DNA from: Escherichia coli
Lineage (GTDB): Bacteria; Pseudomonadota; Gammaproteobacteria; Enterobacterales; Enterobacteriaceae
Reading direction: 5' to 3' (one strand)
Assembly (NCBI RefSeq): GCF_030384885.1
Contig: NZ_CP128613.1
DNA: 64,000 nt
Shown here: in pieces, positions 4,940 through 63,560 of the stretch
How positions within the stretch are numbered: the stretch's first letter is position 1
Layout: the number at the start of each line of letters is the position of its first letter
The notes under the pieces: generated by a model
Told to the model about the DNA's origin: nothing
The model's database searches: none
Seen by the model: the letters and a program-made list of their open reading frames with translations, nothing else
Translations under genes and position numbers: made by a program

Positions 4940-5060
4940 GCTCGTTGTTTATGCCGGATGCGGAGAAAGTCGTAGGCCTGATAAGACGCGACCAGCGTCG
5001 CATCAGGCATCATGCTCAGATGCCGGATGCAGCGTAAACGCCTTATCCGGCCTACAAAAG
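4940..5060. repeat. REP/BIME-type palindromic repeat cluster
   Basis: Repeated GCCGGATGCGG...CGCCTTATCCGGCCTAC and GCCTGATAAGACGCG...CGCATCAGGC units typical of enterobacterial REP elements. Confidence 0.6.
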
Positions 5061-16171: not shown

Positions 16172-16247
16172 CCCATCATCCGGAAAACATTACGAATGAT
16201 GAAGGATATCATTTCACGATGATTTTGGTGGCACCGCTTACAAGCTT

Positions 16248-16517
16248 TTACTCTTTAATTACGCCGCGAGCGCGTAACAGCGCCGTTTTGAAATCTTCTT
16301 CATAATCTTTCTGCAAACCCGGGATCACCGCATCTTTCGCGGAATCACGCATTTTCAGGTGATAGATCAGAATGTCATCCGTCAAATCCGCCAGTTCGCC
16401 GTCAAAACCTGACTCTTTCGCCAGTTTCTGCAAAAATTGCAGCAGGTTAAGGTCTGGCTCTTTTTGCCAGGCTGGCTGGAGGAGTTCAATAACTTCATTC
16501 AGACGTTTACATTTCAT
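16248..16517 (-). CDS. yihD: DUF1040 protein YihD
   Basis: 89-aa ORF from [24 protein letters not shown]; start chosen inside the track ORF. Confidence 0.9.
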
Positions 16518-30807: not shown

Positions 30808-30814
30808 CCACTTG

Positions 30815-30940
30815 CCGGATGCGGCGTGAATGCCTTATCCGGTCTACCGACCCGGCACTAATGTAGGCCTGATAAGACGCACCAGCGTCGCATCAGGCAT
30901 CGTGCATCGATTGCCGGATGCGACATAGATCTAAATGCCA
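30815..30940. repeat. REP/BIME palindromic repeat cluster
   Basis: GCCGGATGCGGCGTGAATGCCTTATCCGG, GCCTGATAAGACGCACCAGCGTCGCATCAGGC and a further GCCGGATGCGAC unit. Confidence 0.6.
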
Positions 30941-41116: not shown

Positions 41117-41884
41117 ATGGCAGATACCTCTTCAACCACCGCTGGCGCACAAACGTTATTACGCGGGCTGGCGGTTCTTAATGCTGTTTATAACGGCTGC
41201 CATGACCTGAAAAGTATCGGCGAGTTCACCGGCACGACCCGGAGCACAACCCATCGTTTAGTCACCGTTCTGGTGGAACAACGCTACCTGCGCCACGTCC
41301 CAACGCAGGGCTACCAACTGGGCGCCAAACTGATCGAATTCGGTGCCAGAGCGCTGGAAAGCACCTCGCTGTACGAAATTGCGCTGCCCGTTTTGCAGCG
41401 TCTGGCCCGTTACACCCTGGACACCGTGCATCTGGGGATCGTTGAAGGCGACGAAGTGCTGTATCTGGAGAAGATCAACAGTCAGCGTGGGCTGGAAATG
41501 CGCTCACGCCCAGGCCATCGCATGCCACTGGCAATCACCGGCATCGGCAAGGCATTGATCCTCAACCGAACAGAAGAAGAGTGGCGCACGCTGTTTAAGA
41601 CCTGTGGTGATGAAACAAAACTGGGCACATTTATTCAGAACATGCGTCGTTATGCCGCCAGTGGTTTTGCTTTTGATCTGGAAGAGAACGAGCCGACTAT
41701 CCGTTGCGTTGCAGCGCCGGTTTACAACGCCCGGGATGAAATTGTGGCGGCTATTTCTGTCGCCAGTACCACTACGTATATGTCACTGGCGCGTCTGGAA
41801 GAACTGGCACCTTACGTCAAATCCTGTGCAGAAGAGATATCCGCTGAACTGGGCTGGGGTAAGCACGTCCGCAAAAATAAATAA
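41117..41884 (+). CDS. IclR-family transcriptional regulator
   Basis: 255-aa ORF from MADTSS with SD AGGAGA; N-terminal wHTH (LRGLAVLNAV...IGEFTGTTRSTTHRLVTVLVEQRYL) and C-terminal IclR effector domain pattern. Confidence 0.85.
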   Translation: MADTSSTTAGAQTLLRGLAVLNAVYNGCHDLKSIGEFTGTTRSTTHRLVTVLVEQRYLRHVPTQGYQLGAKLIEFGARALESTSLYEIALPVLQRLARYTLDTVHLGIVEGDEVLYLEKINSQRGLEMRSRPGHRMPLAITGIGKALILNRTEEEWRTLFKTCGDETKLGTFIQNMRRYAASGFAFDLEENEPTIRCVAAPVYNARDEIVAAISVASTTTYMSLARLEELAPYVKSCAEEISAELGWGKHVRKNK

Positions 41885-41907
41885 ACCATGACTAAAGGAA
41901 ACGGCTA

Positions 41908-42912
41908 ATGTCGGGAAACACCTCATTTATTGCCCTGGACTGGGGAACGTCATCGCTTCGGGCATGGCGTTTTGGCGACTCACCAAATCCACAAGAAAAA
42001 CGTGAATTCCCGTGGGGGATCATGAAATTACCCTCCCAGGCAGCAACACGTGAGGACGCTTTCCACGATACGTTTTTACGTGTCTGCGGCGACTGGCTGG
42101 CACAATCCCCATGCCCGATTCTGGCTTGCGGCATGATCGGCAGTGCGCAAGGGTGGCAACCCGCAGCTTATTTACCTTGCCCGGTCACTCTCGAGGGTCT
42201 GGCAAAGCAGTTGACGCCTGTTATCTACCAGCAGCAGACAATGCTGCACATCATTCCCGGCGTGATTAAAGAAGGTGAAATGCCCGAAGTGATGCGTGGC
42301 GAAGAGACACAAATCTTCGGTGCTATCTCGATGGAACCGGCCCTGCAAAACGCGCTCCGCCAGGGTATGCCTGTGCTGATTGGCTTACCTGGCACACATG
42401 CGAAATGGGCGGTAGTTGAAAACAACACCATTACCGATTTTCGAACCTTTATGACAGGCGAGTTATTTGATGTTTTATCCCGCCATTCGATTCTCGGTGC
42501 CACCATGCGTTCGGGAGATGAACCGCACTGGGATGCCTTCGCCCACGGGCTGACAGCGGCACAAGAGCATCATCAGACCGGATTATTATCGACGCTGTTT
42601 TCGACCCGTTCGCGCCTGCTGACCAGTAATCTTACGCCGTCCTCACAGGGGGATTACCTTTCAGGATTACTGATAGGCCATGAATTATGCGGTCTGGCAT
42701 CCAGTTTGCTACGTGATTTACCCGCCACAACACCGATCGCCTTAATCGGTAGCGCCACTCTGAACAGCCGCTATTCACAAGCATTCAGCCACGTTTTTCC
42801 CGACAGACAGCTACACGCCATTCCTAATGCCACTGAACAGGGGTTATGGCGAATCGCCCACGCTGCCGGGCTACTCTCCACCAACGCCAGGGAATGTACT
42901 CATGCCATTTAA
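41908..42912 (+). CDS. 2-dehydro-3-deoxygalactonokinase-like sugar-acid kinase (DgoK family)
   Basis: 334-aa ORF sharing the motifs I recall from DgoK: ALDWGTSSLRAW, MRGEETQ, PGTHAKW, FRTFMTGELF. Confidence 0.85.
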   Translation: MSGNTSFIALDWGTSSLRAWRFGDSPNPQEKREFPWGIMKLPSQAATREDAFHDTFLRVCGDWLAQSPCPILACGMIGSAQGWQPAAYLPCPVTLEGLAKQLTPVIYQQQTMLHIIPGVIKEGEMPEVMRGEETQIFGAISMEPALQNALRQGMPVLIGLPGTHAKWAVVENNTITDFRTFMTGELFDVLSRHSILGATMRSGDEPHWDAFAHGLTAAQEHHQTGLLSTLFSTRSRLLTSNLTPSSQGDYLSGLLIGHELCGLASSLLRDLPATTPIALIGSATLNSRYSQAFSHVFPDRQLHAIPNATEQGLWRIAHAAGLLSTNARECTHAI

Positions 42913-43531
42913 TACGCTTTTGCAAAAAACCGGGTTAGTCGCCATTTTACGCGGCGTGAAACCGGATGAGATTGTCGCCATCGGTGAAAAGCTGTATGCC
43001 GCTGGATTTCGCCTGATTGAGATTCCCATGAACTCGCCGGAGCCGTTGCAAAGTATCAGTTTACTGCGCGACGCCCTGCCTAAGGACTGCCTGGTCGGAG
43101 CCGGAACGGTGCTTTCGGTGGAGCAAGTCGTCGCGGTTAAAGAGGCTGGAGGCCAGATTATCGTAATGCCGCATTGCGATACTGCGGTGATCCGTCGTGC
43201 CCGTGCGCTGGGTATGTATTGTGCGCCTGGCGTCGCTACGCCCACCGAAGCTTTTGCTGCCATTGAACATGGCGCCAATGCCATCAAGCTGTTCCCGGCT
43301 GAACAAATTACGCCTGAAGTCACCAAAGCCTGGCGTGCGGTTATTCCACAATCCGTTCCGATGTTACCGGTTGGCGGTATCACTCCAGACACAATGGCGC
43401 GTTATCTGAGCCACGGCGCAAACGGCTTTGGCCTCGGTTCTGCGCTATATCGCCCCGGCATGACGCCAGAGCAAGTCTATGAAAATGCAGTACTGTTTAT
43501 GAACGCATGGAACAATTTAAATAGCAAATAA
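42902..43531 (+). CDS. 2-dehydro-3-deoxy-6-phosphogalactonate / KDPG-type aldolase (DgoA/Eda family)
   Basis: About 209-aa ORF from MPFNTLLQKTGLVAILRG; class I aldolase TIM-barrel pattern (EIPMNSP, GAGTV, KLFPA, GGIT). Start overlaps the kinase 3' end by 11 bp. Confidence 0.85.
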   Translation: MPFNTLLQKTGLVAILRGVKPDEIVAIGEKLYAAGFRLIEIPMNSPEPLQSISLLRDALPKDCLVGAGTVLSVEQVVAVKEAGGQIIVMPHCDTAVIRRARALGMYCAPGVATPTEAFAAIEHGANAIKLFPAEQITPEVTKAWRAVIPQSVPMLPVGGITPDTMARYLSHGANGFGLGSALYRPGMTPEQVYENAVLFMNAWNNLNSK

Positions 43532-43555
43532 CTGATAAATAAGGATATAAAAGCA

Positions 43556-44530
43556 ATGATAAAACATCTTACCTTACCGAAAAAAATGGCTGCAATGGTA
43601 CTTCTTGCCGGCGCTGCCCTCAGCACTGCGCCTGTGCAGGCGGCCTCCTGGCCAACCAAACAGATCGAGTTAGTCGTACCCTACGCGGCCGGAGGCGGTA
43701 CGGATCTGGTTGCCCGTGCCTTTGCTGATGCCGCCAAAAACCATTTGCCCGTCAGCATCGGGGTTATCAATAAACCTGGCGGTGGCGGCGCTATCGGCCT
43801 GAGTGAAATCGCCGCTGCCCGCCCTAACGGTTACAAAATGGGTTTAGGCACGGTTGAACTGACCACCCTTCCCAGTCTCGGAATGGTGCGTTTTAAAACC
43901 AGCGACTTTAAACCCATTGCCCGTCTGAATGCGGATCCTGCGGCTATCACCGTCCGTGCCGATGCACCGTGGAATAGCTATGAAGAATTTATGACTTACG
44001 CCAAAGCGAATCCCGGAAAAGTACGCATTGGTAACTCAGGCACCGGAGCAATCTGGCATCTGGCGGCAGCTGCACTGGAAGACAAAACGGGCGTGAAGTT
44101 TTCTCATGTCCCATATGACGGCGCAGCCCCTGCCATTACAGGCCTGTTAGGCGGGCATATTGAAGCGGTTTCCGTAAGCCCAGGTGAAGTTATCAATCAT
44201 GTGAAAGGCGGCAAGCTGAAGACACTGGTAGTGATGGCGGATGAACGTATGAAAACCATGCCTGACGTCCCGACGTTAAAAGAGAAAGGCGTTGATCTCT
44301 CCATCGGCACCTGGCGCGGCCTGATTGTGTCGCAAAAAACGCCGCAGGATGTGGTTGATGTTCTGGCTAAGGCCGCAAAAGAGACGGCTGAAGAGCCTGC
44401 ATTCCAGGATGCTCTGCAAAAGTTGAATCTCAACTATGCATGGCTTGATGGTGCCAGCTTCCAGACCCAAATCAACGAACAGGAAAAGTACTTTGACGAG
44501 TTACTAACTCGGCTGGGCTTGAAAAAATAA
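43556..44530 (+). CDS. tripartite tricarboxylate transporter substrate-binding protein (TctC/Bug family)
   Basis: 324-aa ORF with signal peptide (MIKHLTLPKKMAAMVLLAGAALSTAPVQA) and the TctC-type motifs ...VVPYAAGGGTD..., ...NKPGGGGAIG.... Confidence 0.85.
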   Translation: MIKHLTLPKKMAAMVLLAGAALSTAPVQAASWPTKQIELVVPYAAGGGTDLVARAFADAAKNHLPVSIGVINKPGGGGAIGLSEIAAARPNGYKMGLGTVELTTLPSLGMVRFKTSDFKPIARLNADPAAITVRADAPWNSYEEFMTYAKANPGKVRIGNSGTGAIWHLAAAALEDKTGVKFSHVPYDGAAPAITGLLGGHIEAVSVSPGEVINHVKGGKLKTLVVMADERMKTMPDVPTLKEKGVDLSIGTWRGLIVSQKTPQDVVDVLAKAAKETAEEPAFQDALQKLNLNYAWLDGASFQTQINEQEKYFDELLTRLGLKK

Positions 44531-44546
44531 TCCCGAGGTACGGTCG

Positions 44547-45053
44547 ATGAACACAAAACAGTCTGTTGCTCAACTCGCCGTACCGCACCGCAAGCGCTTT
44601 TCATCCACTGTGGTGGTGGCGCTGTTACTTTGTGTGGTTGCTGGCGCGGTGATAATTAATGCCGCTGATTTTCCAGCAACTGCCATTGAAACGGATCCCG
44701 GTGCAAGTGCCTTCCCTACTTTCTATGCCTGCGCTCTGATTGTGCTCGCTGTCTTACTGGTGATACGCGATCTTTTGCTGGCAAAACCAGTCCCTTGCGC
44801 CAACGCACAGGAAAAACCGGCATTCAGGAAAACGGCAACGGGAATTGCGGCAACCGCGTTTTATATTGTGGCGATGAGCTACTGCGGTTATCTCATTACT
44901 ACTCCTGTTTTCCTCATCGTCATTATGACGTTGATGGGCTACAGGCGATGGGTACTCACACCGGGTATTGCGCTGCTGTTAACGGCAATCCTCTGGTTGC
45001 TGTTTGTCGAAGCGTTACAGGTGCCATTGCCTGTCGGCACATTTTTCGAATAA
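44547..45053 (+). CDS. tripartite tricarboxylate transporter small membrane subunit (TctB-like)
   Basis: 168-aa hydrophobic protein with about 4 TM segments, positioned between tctC-like and tctA-like genes. Confidence 0.75.
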   Translation: MNTKQSVAQLAVPHRKRFSSTVVVALLLCVVAGAVIINAADFPATAIETDPGASAFPTFYACALIVLAVLLVIRDLLLAKPVPCANAQEKPAFRKTATGIAATAFYIVAMSYCGYLITTPVFLIVIMTLMGYRRWVLTPGIALLLTAILWLLFVEALQVPLPVGTFFE

Positions 45054-45065
45054 CAGGGGCCTGCA

Positions 45066-46556
45066 ATGTTTGAAAGTGAACTTTTAACTCAGGGGTTTTC
45101 GACATTACTCAGTAATCCTCAGGCGCTGCTGTTTGCCACGTTTGGAGTGATACTGGGTATTATGATTGGCGCTCTGCCTGGCCTGACAGCGACCATGGGT
45201 GTGGCGATTTTGCTGCCTTTCACCTACGGCATGGAGCCTGTTTCTGGCTTGTTGATGATTTGCGGTGTCTTTTTTGGTGGTGTGTATGGTGGTTCTATCA
45301 CCGCAATTTTGCTCAAAATTCCCGGTACGCCTGCCGCCGCTGCCACCGCCATTGACGGTTATGAGTTAACGAAGCAGGGAAAAGCCGGGCTGGCATTAAG
45401 TGCCGCCACGTTCTCTTCTTTTAGCGGTGGAACGCTCAGCATTATCGTATTGATGTTTCTCTCTCCGGTACTTGCCAGTTGGGCGTTGAAATTTAGTGCC
45501 TCGGAGTCCTTCGCCCTGGCAACCTTCGGACTAAGTATTATTGCCAGTATTTCCGGTGAGTCACTGATTAAAGGGCTGATTGCCGGGGTTGGCGGATTAC
45601 TGATCGCAACGATAGGCCTCGATCCGATGGGCGGTTTTCCACGCTTTACGGGCGGGTTTGTGGAACTGATGAATGTGCCATTTATCCCGGTGATGATTGG
45701 TCTGTTTGCTGCTTCAGAAGCGTTCCGTTCTATGGAACAAAATCAGCATATTCGTCAGAGCGCGAACGTGGCTATCGGCAGTCTGTTACTGCCCTGGCAA
45801 ACGCTACGCCGCATCGCATTAACCATTTTGCGCTCATCAGGATTAGGGGTTTTTATCGGCATGATCCCCGGTGCGGGGGCAGATATTGCAGCTTTTGTTG
45901 CCTATAACGAAACTCGTCGTTTCAGTAAGACGCCTGAAAACTTTGGTAAGGGTGAGATTAAGGCGGTGGCCTCCTGTGAGGCAGGCGCGAATGGCTGCAC
46001 CGGTGGCGCATTGTTACCTATGCTGACGTTGGGGATCCCAGGCGATGCGGTAACTGCCATCATGCTGGGCGCGTTAACGTTACAAGGGATGCAGCCAGGC
46101 CCACTGATGTTTACCGACCACGGCGATATGGTTTATACGCTGTTTGTCGGCATGATCTTTTGTTACTTCATGCTGCTAGTTCTTGGACTGCTCTCTTTGA
46201 AAGTCATCGGTAACGTGGTGAAGATCCCCGGCAATATTCTCACGCCGATGATCCTCGCACTTTGTGTGGTCGGGACTTATGCGTTGAACAATAGCCTGTT
46301 TGATGTTGGCATTATGCTGATTGCAGGCGTGGTGGGCTATTTCATGCAAAAAGGGGGGTATCCGGCATCACCCGTAGTGCTGGCATTGATTATGGGGCCA
46401 ATGGCGGAAAGTAATTTTCGCCGTGCGCTGTCGCTTTCTGGTGGGTCACTCGACTTTCTGTATACCCGACCGATAACCCTGGCATTGCTGACACTGGCAG
46501 CCTTTACGCTACTGACGCCAATAATACGCAAAATTATGCGCTTACGGCGTCAGTAA
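45066..46556 (+). CDS. tripartite tricarboxylate transporter large permease (TctA family)
   Basis: 496-aa polytopic membrane protein with Gly-rich TM segments typical of TctA (GALPGLTATMGVAILLPFTYGM, GGSITAILLKIPGTPAAAAT). Confidence 0.9.
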   Translation: MFESELLTQGFSTLLSNPQALLFATFGVILGIMIGALPGLTATMGVAILLPFTYGMEPVSGLLMICGVFFGGVYGGSITAILLKIPGTPAAAATAIDGYELTKQGKAGLALSAATFSSFSGGTLSIIVLMFLSPVLASWALKFSASESFALATFGLSIIASISGESLIKGLIAGVGGLLIATIGLDPMGGFPRFTGGFVELMNVPFIPVMIGLFAASEAFRSMEQNQHIRQSANVAIGSLLLPWQTLRRIALTILRSSGLGVFIGMIPGAGADIAAFVAYNETRRFSKTPENFGKGEIKAVASCEAGANGCTGGALLPMLTLGIPGDAVTAIMLGALTLQGMQPGPLMFTDHGDMVYTLFVGMIFCYFMLLVLGLLSLKVIGNVVKIPGNILTPMILALCVVGTYALNNSLFDVGIMLIAGVVGYFMQKGGYPASPVVLALIMGPMAESNFRRALSLSGGSLDFLYTRPITLALLTLAAFTLLTPIIRKIMRLRRQ

Positions 46557-47792: not shown

Positions 47793-48605
47793 ATGGCAAC
47801 AACACAACAATCTGGATTTGCACCTGCTGCATCACCTCTCGCTTCGACCATCGTTCAGACCCCGGATGACGCGATTGTAGCAGGCATCACCTCTATCCCT
47901 TCACAAGGGGATAACATGCCTGCTTACCATGCCAGACCAAAGCAGAGCGATGGCCTACTACCAGTGGTCATTGTAGTGCAGGAAATTTTTGGCGTGCATG
48001 AACATATCCGCGATATTTGTCGCCGTCTGGCGCTGGAGGGGTATCTGGCTATCGCACCTGAACTTTACTTCCGCGAAGGCGATCCGAATGATTTTGCCGA
48101 TATCCCTACGCTGCTTAGCGGTCTGGTAGCAAAAGTGCCTGACTCGCAGGTGCTGGCCGATCTCGATCATGTCGCCAGTTGGGCGTCACGCAACGGCGGC
48201 GATGTTCATCGCTTAATGATCACCGGATTTTGCTGGGGTGGACGTATCACCTGGCTATATGCTGCGCATAACCCGCAACTGAAAGCGGCGGTGGCATGGT
48301 ACGGCAAACTGACAGGCGATAAGTCGCTGAATTCACCGAAACAACCTGTTGATATCGCAACCGATCTTAACGCGCCGGTTCTCGGCTTATATGGTGGTCA
48401 GGATAACAGCATTCCGCAGGAGAGCGTTGAAACCATGCGCCAGGCGCTGCGGGCTGCTAATGCGAAAGCAGAGATTATCGTCTACCCGGATGCCGGGCAT
48501 GCATTCAACGCCGATTATCGCCCGAGCTATCATGCTGAGTCGGCGAAAGATGGCTGGCAGCGTATGCTGGAGTGGTTTAAGCGGTATGGTGGGAAACGGA
48601 ATTAG
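47793..48605 (+). CDS. ysgA: dienelactone hydrolase-family protein YsgA
   Basis: About 270-aa ORF from MATTQQSGF; alpha/beta hydrolase with nucleophile elbow GFCWGG. Confidence 0.9.
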   Translation: MATTQQSGFAPAASPLASTIVQTPDDAIVAGITSIPSQGDNMPAYHARPKQSDGLLPVVIVVQEIFGVHEHIRDICRRLALEGYLAIAPELYFREGDPNDFADIPTLLSGLVAKVPDSQVLADLDHVASWASRNGGDVHRLMITGFCWGGRITWLYAAHNPQLKAAVAWYGKLTGDKSLNSPKQPVDIATDLNAPVLGLYGGQDNSIPQESVETMRQALRAANAKAEIIVYPDAGHAFNADYRPSYHAESAKDGWQRMLEWFKRYGGKRN

Positions 48606-48996
48606 TTTCCTCTTATTCTATATTTGAGATGGTGAGTGAACGAATGCGTTTTGCTGCCATCTCTGTCCCCCAAAAAATAATCAGTATGAATTGATTGGAG
48701 AGCACGACTCCGCTATTTGACCTTAAGAAAGTCGGCAAGTCATAGTCATAAATGAGTCTCTTCACTGGCAGACACCTTAAAGATTTACCATCAACTCCCA
48801 TTCTCAAACAAACATTAATTATTATCAACACATTCACATTAATTATAAATTACCTCAGACCTTCCTGATAAAAAGATATTAAAGTGAAACATTTTGTTTT
48901 TCACATTTTAGTTCATCCCTTTTAGGCGTAAATAAAGGTAAAAAATAACAATACTATTTTTCTTTCACAAAAAAATTAACAAAAGGTTTTTCAAGG

Positions 48997-50145
48997 ATGA
49001 GTGATATTATCTACCTGACCATAACCGGAGAACAACACGGATGTATTTCCTCTCGTTGTGGAACGAGCACATCAATAGGTAATCGCTGGCAGATTGGTCA
49101 TGAAGATGAAATCTTCGCATTCTCGCTCTCTAATAGTATTACGAATACAGGAAAAGGGTCACATTTGCATGGCCTTAGTTTCTGTAAGTTGATTGACAAA
49201 AGCTCCCCGTTACTTATTAACGCTATTAACAATAACGAGCAGTTGTTCATGGAGTTTGACTTCTATCGGATCAATAGATTTGGTCGATGGGAGAAATATT
49301 ACAACATTCAACTCCGCGGCGCGCTCTTATCAGCAATCAATCACCTGTTTACGGAGAACAATCTGGATACAGAAACCATCACTGTCAGTTATGAATATAT
49401 ACTCTCCAGGCATCTGATTGCTAATACTGAATTTAGTTATTTGGCATTTCCCGATAACTACAATCGTCTGTTTATACCACGGCCAAAAACTAAAGATGAT
49501 AATGGCCTCAAAACACTCAATAGTAAAGCTGTTGGCAGACTGCTTGCTGCTGGCGGCATATACAATGGGAATATCGAAGGATTCAGGGAAACAGCAAACA
49601 AGTTGGGGGGAGATGCACCTGCTGGTTACGATCAAGTTATGGATAACAAAGGGTTACTCATCGCTGGTGCTTCAATAGTTGCTGGAGCAGTTCTGGGGAG
49701 AATGAGACTCCCTGATTTGGAATCACTTGAGCATTTCGGAGCCAGAGGAGCAGTATCAGGAAGACCATTTAATCCCGACCTTGCCGGTGGTCCAATAGAA
49801 AATCTGACGACAGATGGCGTAACAATCAACAGGGAAGGTATCGCTATTGTTGAAAAACACATAGCCAGATTTGGTCATGACCCTGTAAATGAAGTGATGA
49901 TCAATAGACTGAAAGACATTGAGAAAGGAAAAATCCCCCCAGAACAAGTAGATCTTAACTTCTATACTCATGAATGTCGGGAATATCAGCGTTACTGTAA
50001 TCTTGGTTGGGAAACAGGACAACCTGATGGTGACGCAGGCTATGCACTCTGGAATCATACGCATACTGCTACTCTAGAAGATTATAAACTTAAGGGAGAA
50101 CTTAATGACTTATACCACCAGGACGCACTTGACTATGATAACTGA
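48997..50145 (+). CDS. Hcp (T6SS tube protein, TssD) fused to a C-terminal extension; candidate evolved-Hcp toxin effector
   Basis: 382-aa ORF. The N-terminal ~160 aa follow the Hcp pattern (ITGEQHG...NRW..GHEDEIFAFS...KLIDKSSPLLINAI...EFDFYRIN) as I recall it; then a Gly-rich linker and a ~130-aa His/Cys-containing C-terminal region. Low GC and AT-rich upstream region. Confidence 0.8.
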   Translation: MSDIIYLTITGEQHGCISSRCGTSTSIGNRWQIGHEDEIFAFSLSNSITNTGKGSHLHGLSFCKLIDKSSPLLINAINNNEQLFMEFDFYRINRFGRWEKYYNIQLRGALLSAINHLFTENNLDTETITVSYEYILSRHLIANTEFSYLAFPDNYNRLFIPRPKTKDDNGLKTLNSKAVGRLLAAGGIYNGNIEGFRETANKLGGDAPAGYDQVMDNKGLLIAGASIVAGAVLGRMRLPDLESLEHFGARGAVSGRPFNPDLAGGPIENLTTDGVTINREGIAIVEKHIARFGHDPVNEVMINRLKDIEKGKIPPEQVDLNFYTHECREYQRYCNLGWETGQPDGDAGYALWNHTHTATLEDYKLKGELNDLYHQDALDYDN

Positions 50146-50380
50146 AACTGAAATTAACATACTGAAAGTTATGGCTGAGAAAGATATAAACTGGAACTGG
50201 ATGAATCTCGATCGCACACTATCTATAAGGCAAATTCCAGGATTCGGTAATGTTGTTAACATTGTTAACAAATTAGCTAACGAGGGTTTGGTTATTATTG
50301 AGGATAGCGGACATAAGTCTATGCCTCACTACCACGTTACTGATAAGGGATACAATCTCGTGAAAAGTGAGAATAAATAA
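50135..50380 (+). CDS. small protein downstream of the Hcp fusion; candidate immunity protein (alternative: small wHTH-like protein)
   Basis: 81-aa ORF (MITETEINILKVMAEKD...), or 91 aa from the upstream ATG at 50105. Its start overlaps the Hcp-fusion stop (ATGATAACTGA), the arrangement seen in toxin/immunity pairs. Confidence 0.5.
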   Translation: MITETEINILKVMAEKDINWNWMNLDRTLSIRQIPGFGNVVNIVNKLANEGLVIIEDSGHKSMPHYHVTDKGYNLVKSENK

Positions 50381-50527
50381 CGTAGCGTTGATTACTGAAC
50401 AAATCGCTCAGGATTATATTTTGCGAAAAAAATGATTCGGTTATTTCTGTGTCTGAACGGCCGCAGATAGCAAAATGGCTTCCGGTGATGGAAGCCATCA
50501 GATTATTGGCAAAGTGCGTGTTGTTCA

Positions 50528-50562
50528 TGCCGGATGCGGCGTGAACGCCTTATCTGGCCAAC
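50528..50562. repeat. REP element
   Basis: GCCGGATGCGGCGTGAACGCCTTATCTGGCC. Confidence 0.5.
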
Positions 50563-50666
50563 TAAATCTTGAAAATTCAATAAATTGAATAAATTATGTA
50601 GACTTGGTATCAGGCAGTTTTGCCTCTTTCATCGTACTGCAATTTACAGTGACTCGTTAATACTCA

Positions 50667-52928
50667 TCACCCCCGACGCAAATTCTGCGCCGCCTGCACC
50701 ATGTTCGCCAGTGCCGCGCGGGTTTCTGGCCAGCCGCGCGTTTTCAGACCACAGTCCGGGTTGACCCACAGACGCTCTGCCGGAATGCGTTTTGCCGCTT
50801 TCTTCAGCAGGGCTTCAATCCATTCCACGCTCGGTACGTTTGGCGAGTGAATGTCATAGACGCCAGGACCGATTTCATTTGGATAATCAAACTCTTCAAA
50901 CGACTCCAGCAACTCCATGTCGGAACGCGAGGTTTCGATTGTGATGACGTCTGCGTCCAGCGCCGCAATCGAATCCATGATGTCGTTGAACTCGCAGTAA
51001 CACATGTGAGTGTGGATTTGCGTGTCATCTTTCGCTACGGCAGCGTTGATACGGAAAGCCTCCACGCCCCACTGGAGATAGGCATCCCAGTCGCTGCGAC
51101 GCAGCGGTAAACCTTCGCGTAGCGCCGGTTCATCAATCTGGATGATGCCAATTCCAGCGGCTTCCAGATCGGCCACTTCATCACGAAGCGCCAGCGCAAT
51201 TTGTTTGGCGATGGTTTCACGGCTGACATCTTCACGCGGGAACGACCAGCAGAGAATGGTCACCGGGCCAGTCAGCATCCCTTTCACCGGTTTGTCGGTC
51301 AGCGATTGCGCATACTTTGCCCACTCCACGGTAATCGGTGCCGGGCGGCTAACGTCACCAATGACAATCGGCGGTTTCACGCAGCGGGAACCGTAGCTCT
51401 GTACCCAACCGTTTTGTGTAAAGACAAAACCGTCGAGGTGCTCACCAAAGTATTCCACCATGTCATTACGCTCGGCCTCACCATGCACCAGCACATCCAG
51501 ACCCAGACGTTCCTGCTCAACAATGGCCTGCTTGATATGTTCTGCAATGCCCGTACGATAGTTGTTGGCGTCGAGATTACCCTTTTTGAAATCCAGACGC
51601 AGGGTACGGATTTCTGTGGTTTGCGGGAAAGAGCCAATCGTGGTGGTCGGCCACGCGGGCAGTTTAAAACGCGCACGCTGGGCTTCAGCACGCACTTCAT
51701 AGACATTCGCACGCTGACTGTCCTGGGCGGTGATCGCCGCCAGACGCTTTTCTACTGCCGGATTATGTACACGAGTAGAGTGACGACGCGCCTGAATCGG
51801 TGCACTCCACTCTGCCAGAGCTGCCGTGTCACCACTGTTCAGCGCATCGCGCAGCAATGCCAGTTCATGGCATTTTTGCAGGGCGAAGGCAAACCAGCTT
51901 TTCACTTCTGCATCAAGACGCGTTTCCACGCTCAGGTCGATAGGGCTGTGCAGCAATGAGCAGGAAGATGCCACCCACAAATCACGTTTGCCGACAATGT
52001 CCTTAATTTGCGCATATTTCTCGGTAAGATCGGCGCGCCAGACGTTACGACCATTGATAAGACCCGCAGACAGCAGCCAGTCAGAAGGCAGACGCTTGTG
52101 CAGTTCAGCAACGTCATCTTTACCATGTACGAGATCGACATGCAGCCCCTGAACAGGCAGCGCAGTAATGGTGTCGAGGTTTGGCGTTACGCCTTCAAAA
52201 TAGGTGGTCAGCAGCAGTTTCACCTGGCCCTGGAGCGCGTCGTAAGCGGGTTTATAGGCGTCCAGCCACGCCTGCGGCAGTTCCAGCACCAGTGCGGGTT
52301 CGTCGATCTGTACCCACTCAATGCCACGTTTTGCCAGTTCTGCCAACACTTGCTGATAAACCGGCAGAATGTCGTTTAGCAGGCTCAGGCGATCAAACTG
52401 TTCACCTTTCACTTTACCCAGCCACAGGTAGGTAACCGGTCCCAGCAGCACGGGCTTGACCTTGTGGCCCAGCGCCAGCGCCTCGTCCACTTCCTCCAGC
52501 AGCTGCGTCCAGGTCAGTTTGAACTGTTGGCCTTTAACGAACTCCGGCACCATGTAGTGATAGTTGGTGTTAAACCATTTGGTCATTTCCGCTGCCGCCG
52601 CAGGTTCGCCAGTCGGCGCACGTCCACGACCAATACGGAACAGGGTGTCGATATCTACCGAACCATCTTTGTTCTGATGACGTGGCGGAACGTTACCCAG
52701 CAGCAGACTGGTGGTCAGTACATGATCGTACCAGGCAAAATCGCCCACCGGCAGCAGGTCGATACCCGCTTGCTTTTGTTGATCCCAGTGACGAGCACGC
52801 AGTTCACGCCCTACCGCCAGCAGTTCTTCACGCGTGGTGTTCCCGGCCCAATAACTCTCTTGCGCTTTTTTCAGCTCGCGACGCAGGCCAACGCGAGGGA
52901 AACCGAGGGTGTGATTCAATATTGTCAT
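50667..52928 (-). CDS. metE: cobalamin-independent methionine synthase
   Basis: 753-aa ORF ([30 protein letters not shown]...). Confidence 0.97.
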
Positions 52929-62691: not shown

Positions 62692-62785
62692 AAAATAAAT
62701 ATATTCTGAAAAAATATGCCGACTCTTGCATGAGAGTGGGCATATTGCCATGCTGACAGGAGACTCACACAAGGATGTAAAATTT

Positions 62786-63166
62786 ATGTTGCGTATATTT
62801 ATCCCAACATCTAACGGTAAGATTTCCAGACGTCGTTATATATTTTCATTTATTTTAATAAATTTCATTTTTGCCTTTCTTATTATCTTTTTTAACGATG
62901 GGGACGCAGGTTTTCTTGTTATTGTCTCTACCATCGCACTCCATTATCTCGTCATCAACATGAATTGCCAACGACTCCGTGATAGTGGTTTCATATATAT
63001 AAAAACTTATATTTTTGGTACATTAGCAGTATATATCATCTCTATCATCACAATGATAGCCGAACATTTTGATTGTTCAGGCAATGGTTCGATGATTTTT
63101 TTGATTTGTTATTTTTCCACTTTCAGTATGCTAATGCTTGCACCTACTGATTCATCAAAACAATAG
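62786..63166 (+). CDS. yigG: small inner membrane protein YigG
   Basis: 126-aa hydrophobic ORF from [18 protein letters not shown] with SD AAGGATG; AT-rich codon usage. Confidence 0.8.
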
Positions 63167-63179
63167 TTATGGAGTATTT

Positions 63180-63560
63180 ATGAGTAAGGAATATATGAAC
63201 GATGGTTCATTAAGTGAAAAATGGAAATATCGCTTTAGTTTTTATGATCAACATGGCTTTCCTGGATTCTGGGGGGCAACACCAGAATATAAAGCAGCAT
63301 TTAAAGCATTAAAAGTAAGACAACGATTAACTATTCAAATTAATTTCATTGCTTTCTTCTGTTCCTGGATCTATCTATTTGTTCTGGGTTTATGGAAAAA
63401 AGCAATTATAGTTCTATTACTTTGCATTCTATCTCTATTTGTTGGTGCACTAATTGGCGTTAACATTTTGGGAATTGCCGTAGCAGCCTATGTTGCTGTT
63501 AACACGAACAAATGGTTTTATGAGAAAGAGGTAAAAGGGTTAAATACCTGGAGCCTTTGA
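63180..63560 (+). CDS. yigF: DUF2628 inner membrane protein YigF
   Basis: 126-aa ORF from MSKEYMNDGSLSEKWKYRF with SD GGAG; two predicted TM helices. Confidence 0.8.
   Translation: MSKEYMNDGSLSEKWKYRFSFYDQHGFPGFWGATPEYKAAFKALKVRQRLTIQINFIAFFCSWIYLFVLGLWKKAIIVLLLCILSLFVGALIGVNILGIAVAAYVAVNTNKWFYEKEVKGLNTWSL

Follow-up and report, generated by a model that had tools for sequence, protein, structure and literature searches.

Why should an Escherichia coli chromosome carry 391 bp of AT-rich DNA between the core gene ysgA and a gene that encodes an Hcp-toxin fusion, and how might that DNA govern the gene behind it? An initial annotation made from the letters of the sequence took this spacer for horizontally acquired DNA and for an H-NS-silenced promoter, on the strength of its composition. 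In the following, the window is the whole stretch of DNA that was analysed (64,000 nucleotides), and the spacer is its interval 48606-48996. The reading that we favour, with a probability of about 0.65, is that the spacer forms the left end of an acquired hcp-ET-immunity islet and at the same time its control region for transcription and translation, that it is a composite of two unlike halves, and that it may serve as a binding platform for H-NS. A composition anomaly that can be seen by eye would thereby mark both the boundary and the control region of an acquired type VI secretion system (T6SS) effector-immunity islet. The spacer is a real feature of an ordinary kind, foreign and probably H-NS-silenced DNA; AT-rich acquired promoters silenced by H-NS are already well known. 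The horizontal origin proposed at the outset was right, and the proposed role of H-NS is plausible.

An acquired islet between ysgA and metE

The position of the spacer given in the initial annotation is exact: it extends from the stop codon of ysgA to the ATG of the hcp-ET gene. The annotation of strain 2013C-4282 (NZ_CP027579.1) was transferred by coordinates onto the entire window; the two sequences differ by 1 bp over the 5.6 kb that were compared base by base. The islet comprises the spacer, the hcp-ET gene, the immunity gene and a right-hand spacer, and its features are collected in Table 1.

Table 1. Features of the ysgA-metE interval and its flanks (positions in the window; a dot denotes no strand)
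Feature	Position	Strand	Remarks
ysgA	47793-48605	+	Core gene 5' of the spacer
Weak hairpin on the ysgA stop codon	48591-48611	+	Stem of 7 bp with 3 G-C pairs; T tail poor
Whole acquired islet, ~2.07 kb	48596-50667	.	39% GC; from alignments with K-12, PEC011 and N1, genome distribution and GC
Left spacer half	48606-48803	.	40.4% GC, ordinary composition
Best coding-strand sigma-70-like match, TTGACC-18-CATAGT	48717-48746	+	Score equals the shuffle mean
Right spacer half	48804-48996	+	23.8% GC; homologous to other hcp-ET upstream regions
ACATTAATTAT in two exact copies, 24 bp apart	48812-48846	+	Not conserved outside E. coli
Block A, TCAGACCTTCCTGA	48855-48868	+	Family consensus TCAGAnnTTCCTCA; 12-sequence alignment
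Block B, TAAAGTGAAACATTTTGTTT (TAAAGTGAAACATTTT)	48880-48899	+	About 115-117 bp upstream of the ATG
Exact CpxR consensus GTAAA-N5-GTAAA, GTAAATAAAGGTAAA	48928-48942	+	Consensus scan; predicted
Ribosome-binding region	48981-48996	+	AAAAGG 10 nt before the ATG and AAGG abutting it; aligns with AAAGGATAAGGA of relatives
hcp-ET gene, 382 aa	48997-50145	+	N-terminal Hcp/TssD domain and C-terminal extension; intact in the window
Putative immunity gene, 81 aa	50135-50380	+	Overlaps the hcp-ET stop codon; 35% GC
REP element in the right-hand spacer of the islet	50523-50559	-	REP scan
metE	50667-52928	-	Core gene, convergent with the islet genes

In K-12 and the majority of E. coli, no more than 39 bp, with a hairpin in them, lie between ysgA and metE. 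About 2.07 kb (≈48596-50667) take the place of these 39 bp in the window, and the comparison with K-12 shows that the replacement alters the final codons of ysgA and the stop codon of metE. The bidirectional terminator hairpin of K-12 is gone from the locus, and the weak hairpin on the ysgA stop codon is the sole terminator-like site from ysgA to hcp-ET. In the reading favoured here, the islet replaced a short convergent-terminator spacer between two core genes.

Among 5,426 complete E. coli genomes the full islet occurs in 384 (about 7%), and the full spacer in 385 at 95-100% identity, strains of O145:H28 among these; O121:H19 strains carry a 60-bp core around block B. About 461 further genomes (about 8.5%) carry a diverged version of the right part, corresponding to 48807-48965 of the window, at ~71% identity. 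They are B2 strains (UTI89, CFT073 and N1, for example), in which the copy adjoins the hxlB-ptsG-tkt island and lies upstream of an hcp-ET pseudogene and two immunity paralogues, while the gene on its own upstream side is divergent. The presence and absence of the islet are better evidence for acquisition than its composition. The computed base composition and codon usage agree with the initial annotation on this point: the islet has 39.2% GC against 51-57% in the flanking core genes, and GC3 is 0.37-0.38 in the hcp-ET and immunity genes against 0.52-0.64 in the core genes on either side. A horizontal origin is strongly supported, and the alternative of an ancestral islet of host-like composition that was lost elsewhere is already contradicted. 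No integrase, tRNA, insertion sequence (IS) or flanking direct repeats accompany the islet in the window; the module occupies at least five chromosomal sites, a pattern that points to transfer by recombination.

The gene behind the spacer encodes an N-terminal Hcp (TssD) domain (PF05638, E = 3.6e-14; TIGR03344, E = 2.9e-35, residues 1-147), followed by a C-terminal extension of ~230 aa that has no match in Pfam, NCBIfam, PADLOC or the PDB. The extension is conserved, with invariant H, E, C, R, W and N residues; its AF2 model (pLDDT 53) was too poor for a fold search. An N-terminal Hcp joined to a C-terminal toxin extension is the architecture of Hcp-ET (Ma et al. 2017) or 'evolved Hcp' proteins (Blondel et al. 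2009), and the hcp-ET gene belongs to this described effector class (PMC6730261, PMC2907695). The module resembles described members in its overlapping downstream immunity gene, its orphan location, the polymorphism of the toxins and the occurrence of duplicated or orphan immunity genes. Its toxin domain falls outside the ET1-ET5 types as listed in PMC6730261, again with no Pfam or PDB counterpart. The 81-aa ORF is a putative immunity gene, judged by its overlap with the stop codon of the toxin gene; in relatives, between one and three paralogues of it are present. A T6SS that could fire the effector is probably available, since the near-identical 2013C-4282 genome matches O157 tssC and clpV in a search with a chimeric query; some other islet-bearing strains lack these genes.

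Composition of the spacer and its two halves

At 32.2% GC against 51.0% for the window, the spacer falls within the lowest 0.44% of 391-bp windows. The AT-richest 100 bp in all 64 kb lie inside it (48810-48909, 78% AT), the longest stretch of the window with at least 70% AT runs from 48748 to 49042 (295 bp), and TpA steps occur at a density of 0.098/bp against 0.045 window-wide. The reference set for what follows consists of the window's 32 other spacers, which have a mean of 42.7% GC and a standard deviation of 6.2%. Measured against it, the entire spacer is placed at z = -1.69, its left 198 bp at z = -0.37 and its right 193 bp, which are 76% AT, at z = -3.04; the lowest GC of any 193-bp window within the other spacers is 27.5%, above the 23.8% of the right half. 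The AT-rich signal comes from the gene-proximal half only, which is a new point. The description 'strongly AT-rich' therefore holds for the spacer as a whole and most of all for the outlying right half, but not for the left 198 bp (40.4% GC). Beyond the spacer, AT-rich coding sequence extends for another 1.4 kb.

Other descriptions in the initial annotation fared less well. The spacer had been called low-complexity DNA, yet its 3-mer entropy is 5.558 against 5.585 +/- 0.024 in mononucleotide shuffles, and its 4-mer diversity and compressibility are likewise the same as those of the shuffles. The long A/T tracts reported for it come down to seven homopolymers, each 5-7 nt long, and a longest A/T-only run of 15 nt. 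The neighbouring spacers had also been described as dominated by REP elements. The REP scan, however, places such elements in four spacers of the window only (at ~4950-5055, 30813-30899, 46696 and 50528), the last of them inside the islet itself; it returned none in the adjacent udp-ysgA and metE-metR spacers, and no REP palindromic unit in 48606-48996.

The same numbers bear on a simpler and rather unlikely account, in which the spacer displays the ordinary AT-richness of promoters and is subject to no special silencing, and the gene is driven by a weak constitutive promoter, by the upstream TTGACC-18-CATAGT match or by read-through from ysgA. Spacers in E. coli are AT-rich as a rule, and the spacer as a whole reaches a z score of only -1.69. 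The yihF-dsbA spacer, a core spacer and the lowest in GC among those of the window, is nearly as AT-rich (29.9% GC), and since some core spacers come this close, AT-richness by itself is no proof of silencing. What speaks against the account is the right half, which is AT-richer than any equal-sized window of the other spacers, together with the 1.4 kb over which the AT-rich coding sequence goes on and the binding of H-NS at the paralogous yhhZ locus of K-12 (PMC3661553).

The left half has no homologue beyond the ysgA-linked E. coli islets in blastn and tblastx searches, is present once per genome and is treated here as probable junction filler of ordinary composition. It is bracketed by an imperfect 25-nt inverted repeat (48613-48637 and 48794-48818, 72% complementary), and the spacer holds two short ORFs, one of 74 aa on the minus strand and one of 38 aa on the plus strand. 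Repeat and ORFs could be taken as traces of an element concealed in the spacer, be it a small RNA, a structured leader, a gene for a small protein or the decayed relic of a miniature inverted-repeat element (MITE) or IS. Such an element is highly improbable: a scan of 46.5-53.3 kb returned no Rfam match at E <= 1, and neither ORF has a match in Pfam or NCBIfam. As a structured leader the sequence has a consensus folding energy of -1.3 kcal/mol and no covariation, and it folds worse than its shuffles (single-sequence z = +1.1); on these grounds an RNA thermosensor or conserved leader structure was rejected. A MITE or IS relic was rejected as well, as the sequence is single-copy in every genome and has no blastn or tblastx homologue outside the islet.

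A conserved cassette upstream of hcp-ET genes

Homologues of the right half lie upstream of 11 other hcp-ET genes, which occupy three further chromosomal sites (hxlB/metE, yhhY/ggt and tusA/dctP) in the genera Escherichia, Citrobacter and Salmonella. These settings include two Citrobacter loci (L008 and L009), the yhhY-ggt locus in E. coli, Salmonella and Citrobacter, and the tusA-dctP locus on a contig (L034) that encodes the C. sedlakii-annotated protein P0025. The upstream regions share 96% identity with the window in O145, 70% in the B2 copy of UTI89 and, as the background, 41-57% outside the metE locus. In an alignment of the 12 upstream regions, blocks were defined as fixed positions kept in at least 10 of the 12 sequences. 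Four elements stand out by this definition, namely TCAGA / CCTCA (block A), block B, GCGTAA (48926-48931) and the AAAGG ribosome-binding region. On this evidence the AT-rich core is predicted to be a family-specific cis-regulatory cassette, which travels with the hcp-ET gene across sites and genera.

Block B takes the form TAAAGTGAAA..TTTTGTTT in the alignment, where it starts 117 bp 5' of the ATG. It is the best-conserved non-coding element of the family, with a fixed distance to the ATG at no fewer than four loci in three genera, and its dyad symmetry is imperfect. Its role may be that of an operator or of a core-promoter element, with TAAAGT as a candidate -10 hexamer. A metagenome scan for block B identified 8 hcp-ET loci out of 80, in which Hcp homology lies 95-121 bp from the start of the motif; no homology to Hcp or to toxins was seen at the others, which are probably chance matches, since the retrieved set as a whole is low in GC (median 39%).

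The hcp-ET gene at the yhhY-ggt locus of E. coli is yhhZ of K-12. Its protein is 73% identical to that of the window over the first 230 residues, in which the Hcp N-domain and the linker are homologous. The region upstream of yhhZ, at about 27% GC, aligns block for block with the right half through TAAAGTG.AA.ATTTTATTT, GAGTAAATAAA and AAAGGA. Like the islet of the window, the yhhZ-yrhA segment is an orphan, AT-rich and horizontally acquired. The two systems differ in several respects: yhhZ sits at another chromosomal site, between yhhY and ggt; the toxin of YhhZ is a degenerate HNH (PMC5714182, PMC2907695), whereas the C-terminal domain in the window has no family match; K-12 has no T6SS, unlike the near-identical relative of the strain from which the window derives; and yhhZ has neither an intact TGAAAC half in its block B nor the second half-site for CpxR, both of which the window possesses. 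As the cassette also precedes yhhZ, its regulation is testable in K-12, where the control of orphan toxins could be dissected.

Descriptions of Hcp-ET modules (PMC6730261, PMC2907695) include no upstream regulatory cassette, and no description of the cassette common to yhhZ and the other hcp-ET genes was found in the papers on hcp-ET and T6SS cited here, so that it constitutes a modest addition. A wider proposal, which we offer tentatively and with low confidence, would make the right half the portable regulatory cassette of 'evolved Hcp' toxins at four or more sites in three genera, K-12 yhhZ included. The block AAARTGAAACRTTTT would be the operator of a predicted regulator, the CpxR box would have been added in the ysgA-linked E. 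coli, and orphan effectors would be wired to host signalling on top of H-NS silencing.

Silencing and candidate regulators

According to the reading favoured here, the right half would be the hcp-ET family's own cassette, with conserved blocks, a weak non-consensus promoter and a ribosome-binding site. Its extreme AT content and TpA density could provide a binding platform for H-NS (and StpA). A weak promoter in AT- and TpA-rich DNA is a classic substrate for H-NS/StpA filaments. In DNA of this kind the toxin gene is expected to be silent under laboratory conditions, and its expression to depend on counter-silencing or on an activator that acts at the conserved blocks; it would probably be co-ordinated with the H-NS-repressed T6SS of the host. 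Silencing of this promoter by H-NS is plausible, as AT content stays well above the genome average over at least 100 bp and the DNA is rich in TpA, which is the composition looked for in an H-NS-silenced promoter.

The high-affinity H-NS motif TCGATAAATT is not enriched in the spacer (4 matches with at most 3 mismatches, against 7.9 +/- 2.9 in shuffles), and no site resembles it at better than 3 mismatches; this result speaks against silencing and in favour of plain promoter AT-richness. A position-weight scan for sigma-70 promoters gave a best coding-strand score of 10.6, identical to the mean best score of shuffles, and the site TTGACC-18-CATAGT is accordingly non-significant and no promoter assignable. 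On the minus strand the four best matches score 10.2-11.6, where the shuffles have a mean of 10.6 and a 95th percentile of 13.6. The class of 'promoter islands' was considered for the locus and discarded, as the density of promoter-like sites between 48400 and 50800 is not above chance (8 against 5.7 +/- 2.5 expected).

Transcription may also reach the gene from outside. Read-through from the co-oriented ysgA is possible because only a weak hairpin separates it from hcp-ET, and with the K-12 terminator deleted it would offer a second route of expression, alongside the cassette or, in the account based on plain AT-richness, in place of a regulated promoter. The divergent orientation of the upstream gene in B2 strains means that read-through cannot be the general mechanism of the family.

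Several precedents bear on silencing. In K-12, yhhZ and yrhA are 'promoter islands' bound by H-NS in the ChIP-chip data of Kahramanoglou and of Oshima, and the published binding lies within the yhhZ and yrhA segments and not in the upstream cassette (PMC3661553). In the T6SS2 of avian pathogenic E. coli (APEC), an hns mutant shows derepression of hcp2A, hcp2B and clpV2, and the T6SS of enterohaemorrhagic E. coli (EHEC) is reported to behave similarly (PMC5874247). The APEC/EHEC hcp2B-vgrG unit resembles the window in that an AT-rich promoter precedes hcp and in that it is transcribed apart from the core T6SS operon; the T6SS of the host appears to be of the same type as the hcp2B system, judged by 2013C-4282. 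Both repression by H-NS and direct binding of CpxR-P have been reported for the hcp2B promoter (PMC5874247, PMC6534853), whereas regulation in the window is a prediction, and the two promoter regions share no sequence homology. The T6SS hcp promoter of O157 has no motif in common with the cassette; block B and an N5 CpxR box, both present in the window, are missing from it. The silencing of the SPI-6 T6SS in Salmonella (cited in PMC5874247) likewise concerns low-GC, acquired, T6SS-related DNA in an enterobacterium. There, however, a whole cluster is involved and both H-NS binding and derepression have been demonstrated, whereas in the window it is a 2-kb orphan module that is predicted to be silenced.

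Envelope stress is one signal that might relieve such silencing. The exact GTAAA-N5-GTAAA in the right half is one of two in 64 kb, and shuffles of the spacer give it an uncorrected P of about 0.003 for the N5 spacing and of about 0.014 for N4-8. CpxR-P would bind GTAAATAAAGGTAAA and turn on the effector, an arrangement compatible with H-NS if CpxR acts as the counter-silencer. A scan that allows one mismatch also returns 16237-16251, just upstream of srkA-dsbA, which we take to be a CpxR-regulated locus. All four of the ysgA-linked E. coli variants that were compared have the box in exact form, its first half-site (within GCGTAA) is conserved family-wide, and CpxR-P binds and activates the APEC T6SS2 hcp2B promoter through a GTAAA-type box (PMC6534853) in what is probably the same T6SS type. 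These points have to be set against the fact that the box was found post hoc among many consensus tries, which corrects P to about 0.05-0.25, that UTI89 (4/5), yhhZ, Citrobacter and Salmonella have a degenerate second half-site, that the box has no defined position relative to a transcription start, and that the O157 hcp promoter goes without it. The CpxR box is therefore put forward as a predicted lead, and an envelope-stress promoter is unlikely, somewhat more so than plain AT-richness.

A scan of the whole window for a Fur box, with up to 3 mismatches allowed, gave no match. Inspection by eye against consensus sequences gave no convincing match for sigma-54, sigma-28, sigma-E, sigma-S, CRP, PhoP, OmpR, ArcA or IHF, nor for RcsAB, PurR, ArgR, TyrR or GadE.

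The conservation of block B across at least four loci and three genera, its fixed distance to the ATG and its imperfect dyad raise the further possibility, doubtful as it is, that AAARTGAAACRTTTT is the operator of a dimeric regulator that Escherichia, Citrobacter and Salmonella share, with Cra/FruR as the named candidate. The consensus pattern of Cra is RSTGAAWCSNTHHW. The versions of block B upstream of one Salmonella and one Citrobacter protein (P0007 and P0004) match it at 14/14 positions, but that of the window matches at 12/14 and escapes a scan that tolerates no more than 1 mismatch. In yhhZ the TGAAAC half-site is disrupted, the window shows no enrichment of the degenerate pattern (9 against 13.2 expected), and a search of the literature brought up no connection of Cra with enterobacterial T6SS; block B could equally be a core-promoter element with TAAAGT as the -10. 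A Cra operator in the window was rejected, the exact form being confined to the two relatives. Block B, the CpxR box and read-through from ysgA may all bear on when strains load toxin-tipped Hcp into the T6SS, and if block B is indeed an operator of Cra or of another regulator, the toxin would be tied to a metabolic or other signal beyond generic silencing.

Chromosomal sites and integrity of the hcp-ET module

Modules of hcp-ET that carry the same upstream cassette (loci L028-L035) occupy the chromosomal sites ysgA/metE, hxlB/metE, yhhY/ggt and tusA/dctP; in one metagenomic relative, located at phr/kdp, the upstream region is unrelated. The hcp-ET locus has been struck repeatedly by insertion sequences, as seen at the locus of strain 21AH126 (L026) and in two individual search matches (H112, H118).

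A C tract within hcp-ET comprises six C in the window versus five in RefSeq NZ_CP027579.1 (strain 2013C-4282), and the hcp-ET ORF is therefore intact in the window (382 aa), while it is annotated as 'frameshifted' in the RefSeq entry. The allele of O145:H28 RM13516 is intact and 97% identical, and that of WP4 is annotated as intact and is of equal length. The six-versus-five difference comes from a sequencing error in the homopolymer, or else the tract is prone to slippage.

Feature positions (window coordinates) and insertion sequences at the hcp-ET locus
Feature	Position	Remark
Second insertion	41117-46556	between rmuC and udp
IS3-family element	near 48632-48638	within ysgA/hcp-ET spacer
IS2 and IS903B		adjoining or inside tssD; other strains
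Linker and toxin domain	49510-50145	protein residues ~172-382
C tract	49935-49940	
Immunity gene 3' end	50371-50390	
REP element	50523-50559	
Second copy of 3' end	50587-50606	
Exact GTAAA-N5-GTAAA	61754-61768	inside 51-bp yigI-rarD spacer
yigG-yigF region	62760-63470	about 31-32% GC over 391 bp

Toxin domain, immunity genes and T6SS

The linker and toxin domain, which has H, E, C, R, W and N among its conserved positions as invariant residues, also occurs in fusions with carriers other than Hcp: in Cronobacter and Atlantibacter it belongs to PF26362-containing proteins, and in Pantoea, Lonsdalea and Klebsiella aerogenes it lies within 348-aa proteins. Searches of this region against Pfam, PDB and PADLOC returned no match, and its AF2 model has a pLDDT of 53.

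In the hxlB-metE interval of B2 strains (loci L004 and L027; N1, UTI89), hcp-ET is a pseudogene with an internal stop, followed by two intact immunity paralogues, an arrangement that fits orphan immunity kept after toxin loss. The 3' end of the immunity gene in the window recurs 216 bp downstream as a second, 80%-identical copy, and a REP element separates the two; the downstream copy is probably what remains of another immunity gene, and such a second gene is present in PEC011-type islets.

Not all islet-bearing strains also have O157-type tssC and clpV (one to three matching places), so that in some genomes the islet may carry an effector with no T6SS of this type to deliver it.

Other features of the window

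Relative to K-12, O145 RM13516 and WP4, the window contains a second insertion, with a host-like GC content of 51-54%, that encodes an IclR-type regulator, dgoK/dgoA-like genes and a TctCBA tripartite tricarboxylate transporter. The yigI-rarD match to the CpxR consensus is the only exact one in the window besides one in the ysgA/hcp-ET spacer. The yigG-yigF region, where yigF is annotated as frameshifted, is the sole other patch in the window that equals this spacer in AT-richness.
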